Shown in pieces: positions 52,457-54,037 of a DNA stretch of 64,000 nt. The DNA lies in assembly GCA_012557565.1 (NCBI GenBank), contig GCA_012557565.1_3926.1. One strand, 5' to 3'. Below the pieces are notes generated by a model. The model was not told where the DNA came from. It searched no databases and saw only the letters and a program-made list of their open reading frames with translations. The position numbers and the translations under genes are program-made. Origin of the DNA: a phage. Each line of letters starts with the position of its first letter. Position 1 is the first letter of the stretch.

Positions 52457-52533
52457 GCACCTATAGCCCAACTGGAAGAGGCAGCAGACTTAGAATCTGT
52501 TCAGTGTGAGTTCGACTCTCTCTAGGTGTACCA
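52457..52533 (+). tRNA. tRNA-Leu(TAG)-like, short variable arm
   Basis: Acceptor GCACCTA/TAGGTGT, 3-bp D-stem, anticodon stem GCAGA/TCTGT, loop CTTAGAA, 5-nt variable region, A73, CCA; 77 nt. Confidence 0.6.
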
Positions 52534-52540
52534 AATTAAT

Positions 52541-52616
52541 GCAGGTGTAGCAAAATGGTTATGCGGCTGACTCTTAATCAGTAAGACGATGGGTTCAATT
52601 CCCTCCACCTGTACCA
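52541..52616 (+). tRNA. tRNA-Lys(CTT)
   Basis: Close paralog of tRNA-Lys(TTT) at 51188; loop CTCTTAA; CCA. Confidence 0.7.
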
Positions 52617-52622
52617 AACAAT

Positions 52623-52698
52623 GGGGATGTAGTTTACATGGTTAAAACATAAGTTTTGCAAACTTAAGTACAGGGTTCAATTCCCTGCTTCTCCACCA
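52623..52698 (+). tRNA. tRNA-Ala(TGC)
   Basis: G3:U70 wobble in acceptor stem (Ala identity element), D-stem GTTT/AAAC, anticodon stem TAAGT/ACTTA, loop TTTGCAA, CCA. Confidence 0.8.
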
Positions 52699-52704
52699 AT
52701 TAGT

Positions 52705-52779
52705 GCATCCATAGTTTAAATGGGAAAATTACAGTCTTCCAAACTGAGGTTGAGGGTTCGATTCCCTCTGGATGCTCCA
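52705..52779 (+). tRNA. tRNA-Gly(TCC)
   Basis: Perfect acceptor GCATCCA/TGGATGC, loop CTTCCAA, T-arm GAGGG-TTCGATT-CCCTC, CCA. Confidence 0.75.
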
Positions 52780-52785
52780 AACAAT

Positions 52786-52860
52786 GCTCTTATCGTATAA
52801 TTGGCTATTACGGTTGCCTTGTAAGCAACTTATCAGGGTTCGAATCCTTGTGGGAGCACC
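52786..52860 (+). tRNA. tRNA-Thr(TGT)
   Basis: Anticodon stem GTTGC/GCAAC, loop CTTGTAA, T-arm CAGGG-TTCGAAT-CCTTG, CCA. Confidence 0.75.
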
Positions 52861-52956
52861 AATTTTGAGGTCAAGTGAAAGACCGCTTGAGTCAACTGAA
52901 GACCGTAACAAATTCCACGTAGTTGAGTTAGCGGCACAGCTTCAGACCTCTTCAAA

Positions 52957-53031
52957 GCTCGCTTAGTTTATATGGTAAAGCCCCATCCTTACAAGTTGGT
53001 GAAGAAGGTTCAAGTCCTTCAGCGAGTACCA
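52957..53031 (+). tRNA. tRNA-Val(TAC)
   Basis: Acceptor GCTCGCT/AGCGAGT, loop CTTACAA, T-arm GAAGG-TTCAAGT-CCTTC, CCA. Confidence 0.75.
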
Positions 53032-53032
53032 A

Positions 53033-53110
53033 GTTCCAGTATCCCAATTGGCAGAGGATGCAAGCTCAAACCTTGTATTAGTGACGGTTCGAATCCGTCT
53101 TGGAACACCA
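53033..53110 (+). tRNA. tRNA-Leu(CAA)-like, short variable arm
   Basis: Acceptor GTTCCAG/TTGGAAC, 3-bp D-stem with 11-nt loop, anticodon stem GCAAG/CTTGT, loop CTCAAAC, 6-nt variable region, A73, CCA; 78 nt. Confidence 0.6.
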
Positions 53111-53125
53111 AATTAGGAGATTCCT

Positions 53126-53338
53126 ATGAAGCCTTATGGTAGACATGGTAAAGTTGAAATTGCAAGTTGTGGTTGCTGTGCTTCTCACGATGGTGAAGAA
53201 GATTACTACAAGTGGCGTACAGACCATCGTAGACGCTTTCTCAGAAGAGATAAGAAGAAAGCTAGACAGGAATCTCGAAAGAATATTGCAGAATTAGTTC
53301 AAACGGATAGAGCAGCAACCTACGAAGTTGTTTGTTAG
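53126..53338 (+). CDS. small basic hypothetical protein; 3' end overlaps tRNA-Arg(ACG)
   Basis: 70-aa ORF with AGGAG 7 nt upstream; last about 50 nt lie inside the tRNA gene, so the C-terminus may be an artefact. Confidence 0.3.
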   Translation: MKPYGRHGKVEIASCGCCASHDGEEDYYKWRTDHRRRFLRRDKKKARQESRKNIAELVQTDRAATYEVVC

Positions 53339-53364
53339 GGGTTCGAATCCCTTATTCTGCACCA
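53288..53364 (+). tRNA. tRNA-Arg(ACG)
   Basis: Perfect acceptor GCAGAAT/ATTCTGC, D-arm GTTC-AAACGGATA-GAGC, anticodon stem GCAAC/GTTGT, loop CTACGAA, T-arm AGGGG-TTCGAAT-CCCTT, CCA. Confidence 0.75.
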
Positions 53365-53382
53365 ATTTTAGAAGGTAATTAT

Positions 53383-53610
53383 ATGCGTAAACTCATTATT
53401 GAAAGGCATAAAGATGCTGACAAGATTGAAACAACACAAGTTGGGGACACTGACTTCATTCTTGTAGGTTGGAAATGTGACCCAATAGCAGTTATGAAGG
53501 TTGTTCATGGTCTTGCAGGAATTGAATTTAATCAAATCATATTTGAAACGCTATTACCAGAAAATCAGGATACGTGTAATAACGCATATGTTCTGACAAG
53601 AGTTCGTTAG
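53383..53610 (+). CDS. hypothetical small protein, tandem paralog 1
   Basis: Track ORF 53332-53610 trimmed to Met at 53383 (MRKLIIERHKDADKIE...); 64 percent-like identity by eye to next ORF. Confidence 0.55.
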   Translation: MRKLIIERHKDADKIETTQVGDTDFILVGWKCDPIAVMKVVHGLAGIEFNQIIFETLLPENQDTCNNAYVLTRVR

Positions 53611-53633
53611 GGGTTCGAATCCCTTATTCTGCA
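53606..53633 (+). pseudogene. tRNA 3' fragment (duplicate of tRNA-Arg(ACG) T-arm and acceptor 3' strand)
   Basis: GTTAGGGGTTCGAATCCCTTATTCTGCAC identical to 53334-53362; no matching 5' half upstream. Confidence 0.7.
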
Positions 53634-53654
53634 CAAAATTTAAAAGGGTAACTT

Positions 53655-53882
53655 ATGTTTAAACTCATAGTTGAAAAACACCCAGAAGATGACAAGCTTG
53701 AAACAGGGAGATTTGGAGATACTTTCTTTATCAGAGTTGGCTGGAAAGCTGACCCATTAGAAGTTAGAAAGATTGTCTACAACTTTGCTGGTTTGGAATT
53801 AAAGCAAGTCATCTTTGAAACAATGTTGCCAGAAAATAAAGATACATGCAATAACGCATATATTCTTACAAGAGTTAGTTAG
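53655..53882 (+). CDS. hypothetical small protein, tandem paralog 2
   Basis: 75 aa MFKLIVEKHPEDDKLE... paralogous to 53383-53610 (shared FETMLPENKDTCNNAYILTRV). Confidence 0.55.
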   Translation: MFKLIVEKHPEDDKLETGRFGDTFFIRVGWKADPLEVRKIVYNFAGLELKQVIFETMLPENKDTCNNAYILTRVS

Positions 53883-53956
53883 GGGATTAGTTTACAAGGT
53901 TAAAACCTCGGTCTTTGAAATCGAAGAAGTTGGTTCAATTCCAACATCCCCCGCCA
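53881..53956 (+). tRNA. tRNA-Gln(TTG)
   Basis: D-stem GTTT/AAAC, anticodon stem TCGGT/ATCGA, loop CTTTGAA, T-arm GTTGG-TTCAATT-CCAAC, CCA; 1:72 mismatch. Confidence 0.7.
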
Positions 53957-53958
53957 AT

Positions 53959-54037
53959 GCTCCATTACTCCAATTGGCAGAGAGGCCAGACTTAAAATCT
54001 GTGTTATGTATCGGTTCGAATCCGATATGGAGTACCA
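53959..54037 (+). tRNA. tRNA-Leu(TAA)-like, short variable arm
   Basis: Acceptor GCTCCAT/ATGGAGT, 3-bp D-stem, loop CTTAAAA, about 7-nt variable region, A73, CCA; 79 nt. Confidence 0.6.

Follow-up and report, generated by a model that had tools for sequence, protein, structure and literature searches.

A long variable arm counts as a textbook hallmark of bacterial tRNA-Leu, and the leucyl-tRNA synthetase (LeuRS) of Escherichia coli is described as charging type II tRNA-Leu only. What, then, are three tRNA genes with leucine anticodons and no such arm doing in a phage of enterobacteria? The genes lie in a 64,000-nucleotide (nt) stretch of phage DNA (GenBank assembly GCA_012557565.1, contig GCA_012557565.1_3926.1), analysed at its full length and referred to here as the window. 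The source phage is a Felix O1-like myovirus (Ounavirinae, Mooglevirus-like): the best match of its tRNA cluster region is Citrobacter phage BSwM KMM4 (97.7% identity), followed by Mooglevirus phages of Shigella and Citrobacter at 90–98% and by weaker matches to over 350 genomes from Felix O1-like phages (Ounavirinae) of Escherichia, Salmonella and Erwinia. The answer that we consider probable is that the three genes encode working leucine tRNAs of an armless, type I lineage, charged by the LeuRS of the host and meeting the codon demand of the phage.

All three genes are on the plus strand and were called by ARAGORN with coordinates and anticodons identical to those in a preliminary description of the locus made from the sequence alone. 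The class I (armless) tRNA-Leu(UAG) occupies 52457–52533 (77 nt including CCA; 52.5 bits on Rfam RF00005), with the D-arm GCC-CAACUGGAAGA-GGC, the variable loop UCAGU (5 nt), a U50.U64 mismatch in the T-stem and the anticodon loop CUUAGAA (A37). The equally armless tRNA-Leu(CAA), at 53033–53110 (78 nt including CCA; 44.0 bits), has the D-arm UCC-CAAUUGGCAGA-GGA and the variable loop AUUAGU (6 nt), and the class I tRNA-Leu(UAA), at 53959–54037 (79 nt including CCA; 47.5 bits), has the D-arm CUC-CAAUUGGCAGA-GAG, the variable loop GUUAUGU (7 nt) and a C27.U43 mismatch. Each gene has A9, C13 and A73, the last followed by an encoded CCA, and each anticodon loop is intact, with U33 and a purine at position 37. 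RF00005 (gathering score 29) aligned all three at full length (model positions 1–71), and these alignments agree with ARAGORN on the short variable regions and total lengths first reported. The 13:22 pair is non-standard in all three, so the D-stem is 3 base pairs (bp) long and closes an 11-nt loop; the 3-bp stem and A73 noted in the preliminary description are thus present on parsing. The variable regions form no stem, and the arm of more than about 10 nt with a stem-loop that marks class II is absent.

The same three genes, of 77, 78 and 79 nt, are given by tRNAscan-SE for the near-identical Shigella phage Sf14, where Leu is the top isotype model for each (67.4, 49.1 and 60.2; PMC12482277). 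That 2025 study of the Sf14 tRNAs found the three leucine genes isotype-consistent and 14 of the 26 Sf14 tRNAs not so, and nowhere mentions the variable arm; public records already annotate three tRNA-Leu genes. A different isotype or an overlooked long arm, either of which would have overturned the original proposal, was sought and ruled out by ARAGORN, the Rfam alignments and the published tRNAscan-SE isotype scores. Comparison with the host, also suggested at the outset, gave class II genes of 85, 87 and 85 nt for E. coli leuW, leuZ and leuX; the premise that bacterial tRNA-Leu is normally class II therefore holds for the hosts and fails as a universal statement, armless genes being found in Actinomycetota. 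Likewise, the deviation is shared by three genes as described, although these are not independent: they are mutually paralogous (63–74% identity of the tRNA body) and belong to one family, so that the shared deviation is largely inherited and does not represent three separate events.

Loss of the arm is specific to leucine within this phage, since the other class II-type genes of the window retain it. The tRNA-Ser(UGA) gene (52114–52203, plus strand, 90 nt) and the tRNA-Ser(GCU) gene (55064–55156, plus strand, 93 nt) keep a stem-loop variable arm in the ARAGORN bracket structure and act as internal class II controls, and a tRNA-Tyr(GUA)-like gene at 50569–50649 (plus strand; 22.8 bits on Rfam, below the gathering score, with no ARAGORN call) has the variable stem-loop GUCA-UUA-UGAC. 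The Tyr-like gene has mismatches in the acceptor stem; its Sf14 homologue is annotated as tRNA-Tyr of 88 nt.

Whether an armless tRNA can be a leucine tRNA depends on what the synthetase reads. For E. coli LeuRS the determinants are A73, the Levitt pair A15-U48, G18G19 and A20a in the D-loop, and the contacts G18:U55, G19:C56 and U54:A58; the anticodon and the long arm are unused and arm-less constructs are still active, whereas the size of the arm is the major determinant in tRNA-Ser (PMC9976931). When parsed beside leuW, leuZ, leuX and the tRNA-Leu genes of phages T4 and T5, the three genes carry the complete set of E. coli LeuRS determinants listed in that source, with U8, A14, A15, G18, G19, A20a, U48 (as the last base of the variable loop), U54, A58 and A73 in every one. 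Their D-loops CAACUGGAAGA and CAAUUGGCAGA match the E. coli forms AAAUUGGUAGA, GAAUCGGUAGA and AAAUCGGUAGA position for position, and their T-loops, UUCGACU and UUCGAAU, retain U54, U55, C56 and A58. The phage genes have A9 and C13 in contrast to the G9 and A/G13 of class II tRNA-Leu, at positions that pack against the variable region.

The extent of this architecture in viruses was surveyed in IMG/VR with the pattern CCCAA-N27-33-CAGTG-NNN-GTTCGA, which carries no anticodon information and leaves no room for an arm; here, as in the bacterial survey (one genome per species) and the control viral loci described below, all counts are lower bounds. The at least 129 matches obtained comprised at least 118 within ARAGORN tRNA-Leu calls, 2 ambiguous Leu calls and 9 uncalled, with anticodons, among the matches listed, of taa (47), tag (27), caa (25), gag (14), cag (3) and aag (2), and gene lengths of 72–80 nt. 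No non-Leu isotype was present among the at least 129 viral matches listed, and for an armless body to occur solely with the six leucine anticodons argues strongly that leucine is specified by the body. BLAST with the UAG gene returned collinear matches of about 68–73 nt, too short to contain an arm and annotated as tRNA-Leu, in phages of Mycobacterium (91 records), Streptomyces (42), Enterococcus, Gordonia, Lactobacillus and Synechococcus. The phage loci that were fetched contain short leucine genes, with Enterococcus phage 113 carrying a short gene beside a class II one, and over 73 nt the UAG gene shares 83.6% identity with the tRNA-Leu(tag) of Mycobacterium phage Estes. Armless tRNA-Leu is thus a widespread phage trait. 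The U50.U64 apposition of tRNA-Leu(UAG) is common to the window, Estes (locus L001, 5997–6073) and Sf14 (locus L369, 16492–16568), and the conservation of this non-Watson–Crick pair across very distant phages is unexpected.

The form is also cellular. The bacterial survey yielded at least 106 tRNA-Leu genes of 74–79 nt among at least 121 pattern matches; more than three quarters of the loci listed belong to Actinomycetota on a rough reading of record titles, and in 99 of the 120 bacterial loci listed the armless leucine gene is the sole tRNA within 8 kb. Such solitary chromosomal copies, mostly in Actinomycetota, indicate that the armless form is an ordinary chromosomal gene in this phylum, in keeping with the type I tRNA-Leu(CAA) described from Streptomyces coelicolor (PMC6614811); for M. 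tuberculosis, only three tRNA-Leu species with long loops are reported (PMC11541572). Among the 178 viral and 109 bacterial short leucine genes listed, A9 and C13 occur in 91% and 89% of the viral and in 98% and 100% of the bacterial members, as against G9 in 97–100% of long leucine genes, and U8, A14, A15, U48, A73 and the T-loop UUC.A reach 90–100% (A73 90–97%; UUC.A 98–100%). The canonical variable loop of the family is NCAGU (5 nt), which the UAG gene fits; the 6-nt and 7-nt loops of the CAA and UAA genes are rare, with 9 and 1 instances, respectively, among the 178 viral genes listed. A trait unique to the window phage, or to phages alone, is ruled out by these distributions. Nor is it a general trait of coliphages, as T4 and T5 carry class II tRNA-Leu.

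A less biased viral sample of 119 listed loci, picked by a generic non-Leu tRNA motif and analysed with ARAGORN, was used to gauge how common loss of the arm is across isotypes. With a cut-off of 80 nt for short genes, which includes one leucine gene with a 10-nt variable region, 10 of the 48 tRNA-Leu genes listed (∼21%) were short, lengths running continuously from 74 to 89 nt, whereas 40 of the 41 tRNA-Ser genes listed were long. Several short leucine genes in this sample have G9, a bacterial-type D-arm and an unrelated AUUUU variable loop, an indication that the arm has been lost more than once. Short genes also occurred for tRNA-Tyr, which is class II in bacteria: 4 of the 19 listed in the control sample (loci L250–L368) were of 80 nt or less, and short phage tRNA-Tyr genes were seen in Estes (78 nt; locus L001, 3650–3727) and Streptomyces phage Jay2Jay (72 nt; locus L003, 15456–15527). 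In the CUN-reading phage tRNA-Leu(NAG), A37 replaces the bacterial G37 (the m1G37 site) in at least 34 of 74 short and at least 14 of 39 long genes, T5 included, and it was found in 5 of the 25 bacterial short Leu(NAG) genes listed; this suggests independence from TrmD-type modification, unrelated to arm length. A link between A37 of the UAG gene and loss of its arm was considered and ruled out, A37 being equally common in long-arm viral Leu(NAG), again with T5 among them.

Evidence that the fold is maintained comes from covariation and from comparison of related genomes. Across 110 non-redundant short leucine genes, the three from the window included, 97.6% of the cells for 19 cloverleaf pairs (27:43 being left out for an alignment gap) were standard pairs, compared with 63% after column shuffling and 37–46% with slid partners. 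Two-sided changes numbered 680 cells against 162 expected, 18 of the 19 pairs covary, and the covariation score of 0.915, reached in 0 of 500 shuffles, contrasts with 0.213 for shuffled columns and 0.115–0.153 for slid partners. When the window is compared with Sf14, tRNA columns are 96.3% identical and the remainder of the cluster 78.1%; at 99% identity or more, the UAA gene recurs in 216 phage records and the CAA gene in 160. Sf14 and Felix O1 both carry an exact copy of the CAA gene; Felix O1 also has an exact copy of the UAA gene, which in Sf14 is changed at one base. The proposal of a real structural class, as opposed to an error of parsing, is borne out by this near-invariance in more than 250 related genomes and by the covariation-supported fold, and the pattern of substitution shows that the tRNA genes are under strong purifying selection. 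The armless state is uniform for the leucine genes of the three Ounavirinae genera examined, with three short genes (caa, aag and taa) in Erwinia phage phiEa104. The tRNA-Leu(UAG) of Felix O1 (Salmonella phage FO1a; locus L370, 2570–2647) is likewise armless, at 78 nt, and is non-orthologous to that of the window, having G9, another D-arm and the variable loop AUGUU; one isoacceptor has therefore been replaced within the subfamily with the short form retained.

The anticodons suit the phage. Leucine codons in 62 open reading frames (ORFs) of the window are divided among UUA (23%), UUG (15%), CUU (27%), CUC (5%), CUA (9%) and CUG (20%), while CUG makes up ∼50% of leucine codons in E. coli; on this usage the anticodons UAA, CAA and UAG fit the demand of the phage. 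Recent deletion of the arm from a host tRNA-Leu was ruled out as their origin: with variable region and anticodon removed, body identity is 0.51–0.60 to E. coli tRNA-Leu and at best 0.72–0.82 to members of the short family, and no match to the UAA gene was found in 5,426 complete E. coli genomes.

From these elements a course of events can be proposed in which transcription of the phage tRNA cluster would yield the three tRNAs, maturation would take place at the encoded CCA, and host LeuRS would leucylate them through A73 and the corner formed by the D- and T-loops (U8-A14, A15-U48, G18G19, A20a, U54-A58), without use of anticodon or variable arm; once charged, they would decode UUA, UUG and CUA with their wobble partners, codons used far more by this 39% G+C phage than by its CUG-biased hosts. 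As LeuRS would have no requirement for the arm, the arm can be absent from phage leucine tRNAs, and as SerRS needs the arm and LeuRS does not, leucine arms would decay in phage genomes while serine arms stay. No phage-encoded synthetase is annotated in the first 50 kb of Sf14, and none is mentioned for that phage.

Several observations weigh against this reading. The E. coli enzyme left the transcript of Streptomyces coelicolor type I tRNA-Leu(CAA) wholly uncharged in vitro, having charged the type II species at 50%, and charging of type I was credited to features of the leucine-specific domain in some Streptomyces LeuRS (Fan et al. 2019, PMC6614811). In architecture it matches the genes of the window, whose D-loop CAAUUGGCAGA is the commonest actinobacterial form. 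In addition, the three genes score 44–52.5 bits on RF00005 compared with 55–64 bits for most of their neighbours, and two of them contain a mismatched pair (U50.U64 in the UAG gene, C27.U43 in the UAA gene). The Streptomyces result (PMC6614811) is in conflict with the arm-independence of E. coli-derived constructs, as these are summarised in PMC9976931; given the conflicting in vitro data, it is from the identity elements that we infer charging of the phage tRNAs in enterobacteria. Transcription would likewise follow from the cluster context, and the absence of the arm may reflect either tolerated inheritance or adaptation.

Adaptation is the substance of one alternative, in which leucine charging is retained and the difference concerns the reason for the missing arm: an armless tRNA-Leu would escape host or phage tRNA toxins or nucleases that recognise the long arm, so that leucine decoding survives inactivation of the class II tRNA-Leu of the host. 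Such counter-defence is unlikely to be the explanation, although it has points in its favour. Efficient modification by MenT3 depends on a long variable loop, and re-orienting the arm makes a tRNA-Leu variant a full substrate; native tRNA-Leu, however, is not preferred by this enzyme (PMC11541572). AbiEii appears to prefer class II tRNAs, the UAG isoacceptor of Felix O1 is non-orthologous yet armless, and the leucine genes of three Ounavirinae genera are uniformly armless compared with ∼21% of those listed in general viral contigs. On the other side, no arm-dependent toxin acting on tRNA-Leu was found documented for Enterobacteria in the literature searched, having class II tRNA-Leu does not keep T4 and T5 from thriving on the same hosts, and the armless tRNA-Leu is an ordinary cellular gene in Actinomycetota, so that no defence pressure is needed to explain the form. 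A role for bacterial Schlafen as a class II-specific driver is unsupported, since the characterised enzyme cleaves the anticodon arms of class I tRNAs. The narrower proposition that the uniform loss of the arm in Felix O1-like phages counters MenT/AbiEii-like nucleotidyltransferases or a type II-specific Schlafen, or that the phage eliminates host class II tRNA-Leu and spares its own, we regard as improbable; were counter-defence correct, enterobacterial LeuRS would have to charge type I tRNA-Leu in vivo, contrary to the in vitro picture.

The failure of E. coli LeuRS on a tRNA of the same architecture (PMC6614811), together with other degenerate tRNA-like elements in the cluster, could instead mean that the leucine genes are not leucylated in enterobacteria and give uncharged tRNA-like RNAs, whether decoys for tRNA-targeting enzymes, regulators or relics of the cluster. 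We hold this to be quite improbable in view of the complete E. coli identity set, the encoded CCA, the intact anticodon loops with U33 and a purine at 37, and anticodons that match the codon bias of the phage; moreover, bodies of this family occur with leucine anticodons alone among the viral matches listed, and the leucine genes are as strongly conserved as the other tRNAs of the cluster. That they are class I tRNAs of another isotype with acquired leucine anticodons, charged by another synthetase with partial recoding of leucine codons, is very hard to credit: the tRNAscan-SE Leu score of the UAG gene (67.4) is barely above those for Ile2 (65.7) and Lys (63.4) (PMC12482277), but in each of the three genes Leu outscores the other isotype models, the geometry and sequence of the D-arm are Leu-specific and common to class II tRNA-Leu, A73, A15-U48 and A20a are present, and the anticodon-free signature yields leucine genes alone among the virus matches listed. 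A parsing artefact or a set of pseudogenes has the least to recommend it, nothing favouring it except that the covariance-model scores are modest and that two of the genes have a mismatch each; three programs are concordant, the genes are near-invariant in hundreds of genomes while their spacers diverge, and covariation is strong, so that this reading is already effectively refuted.

The three genes form part of a phage tRNA gene cluster (50010–55238, plus strand) of 25 ARAGORN tRNAs, all on the plus strand, with small ORFs between them. Promoter-like sequences, which are matches to consensus only, lie upstream of the block containing the leucine genes (TTGACA-N17-TATAGT, 51514–51542, plus strand) and ahead of the first tRNA (TTGACA-N18-TATAGT with TG, 49953–49982), in a window where the total count of such sites does not exceed the shuffled expectation. 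A tRNA-like element at 50918–50992 (plus strand), uncalled by ARAGORN and barely over the Rfam gathering score at 30.9 bits, combines a degenerate D-arm and two mismatches in the acceptor stem with the anticodon loop CUUAUAA, whose UAU would pair with the Ile codon AUA. Further along, 53598–53640 (plus strand) repeats the 3′ half of tRNA-Arg(acg) (53288–53364), and two paralogous 75-aa ORFs without a Pfam match (53383–53610 and 53655–53882, plus strand) both end within tRNA or tRNA-like sequence; the region 53288–53882 looks like a tandem duplication of an ORF-plus-tRNA unit with a tRNA fragment left behind. Directly upstream of the cluster, a 471-aa ORF (48429–49844, plus strand) contains DUF2828 (PF11443, 1.2e-26) and DUF7788 (PF25043, 6.4e-44), and its counterpart in Sf14 is annotated ‘RNA-binding protein’. 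The tRNA cluster of Enterococcus phage 113 is also flanked by a DUF2828 gene and a Ro-like RNA-binding protein is present within the tRNA region of Jay2Jay, so that proteins of the Ro/DUF2828 type and phage tRNA clusters may be recurrently linked. Inside the cluster, between tRNA-Phe and tRNA-Ser(gct), a DUF7217 protein of 265 aa (PF23854, 5.4e-84; 54265–55062, plus strand) is annotated in Sf14 as a putative membrane protein.

Type I tRNA-Leu has precedents in mitochondria and Streptomyces, GenBank annotates the phage genes as tRNA-Leu, and a short-loop tRNA-Leu(UAG) in a mycobacterial tRNA cluster has received a passing remark (PMC6582537). No discussion of armless tRNA-Leu in phages was found in the literature searched, a search that left most subscription journals outside its reach and does not prove absence. 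What is added here is the breadth of the armless form and a conflict, open to experiment, with the specificity that has been reported for E. coli LeuRS. A phage subfamily infecting Escherichia, Salmonella, Shigella, Citrobacter and Erwinia relies solely on armless tRNA-Leu, under strong purifying selection, and its genes are a natural set of substrates with which acceptance of type I tRNA-Leu by enterobacterial LeuRS could readily be examined. The contrast between tRNA-Leu, short in about one fifth of the viral genes sampled, and tRNA-Ser, which retains its arm, matches the pattern of which synthetases need the arm. Phage annotation and tRNA-adaptation analyses should accordingly not presume class II geometry, and the phage genes are candidates for compact leucine-accepting tRNA scaffolds. 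If loss of the arm were immune evasion, deletion of a whole arm would be a new mode beside the known anticodon-loop escape mutations of phage tRNAs.

Among known systems, one close likeness is to S. coelicolor type I tRNA-Leu(CAA) (Fan et al. 2019, PMC6614811) and the armless genes of Actinomycetota, which share with the window the 3-bp D-stem, the D-loop CAAUUGGCAGA, A9, C13, A73, leucine anticodons and, in the UAG gene, a 5-nt variable loop of the NCAGU type, at body identities of up to 0.72–0.79. The actinobacterial genes differ in being cellular, in depending for type I on leucine-specific domain features of their own LeuRS (PMC6614811), where the genes described here belong to an enterobacterial phage, and in the variable loop, the 6 and 7 nt of the CAA and UAA genes being rare in the family. 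The short-loop tRNA-Leu(UAG) of mycobacterial clusters (Behra et al. 2019, PMC6582537) and the clusters of actinophages offer a parallel in setting, with armless leucine genes in a dense array accompanied by HNH endonuclease genes; tRNA-Leu(tag) of the actinophage Estes has, besides its 83.6% identity to the UAG gene, U50.U64 too. The difference is one of host phylum; armless tRNA-Leu is among the hosts' own genes in actinobacteria and is missing from enterobacterial hosts.

Animal mitochondrial tRNA-Leu, also of type I, likewise lacks the arm and has A73 and A14 as determinants (PMC9976931), although it is a reduced, AT-rich organellar tRNA served by a dedicated mitochondrial LeuRS. Engineered arm-less E. 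coli tRNA-Leu (Larkin et al. 2002, as summarised in PMC9976931), including forms that also lack the anticodon arm, is charged if A73 and the D/T-loop contacts are intact; on that summary, the leucine genes of the window possess what such charging depends on, and they differ from the constructs, which derive from E. coli and combine a class II core with G9. In E. coli (leuW, leuZ and leuX), T4 and T5, class II tRNA-Leu resembles the phage genes in anticodons, in D-arm geometry and register, and in A14, A15, G18, G19, A20a, U48, A73 and the T-loop, differing in a length of 85–87 nt, a variable arm of 12–15 nt, G9, A/G13 and a body identity of 0.51–0.65. T5 and T4, which share the hosts of the window phage, keep their class II tRNA-Leu, at 85 and 87 nt, and both these and the armless tRNAs of the window are presumably served by the same synthetase.

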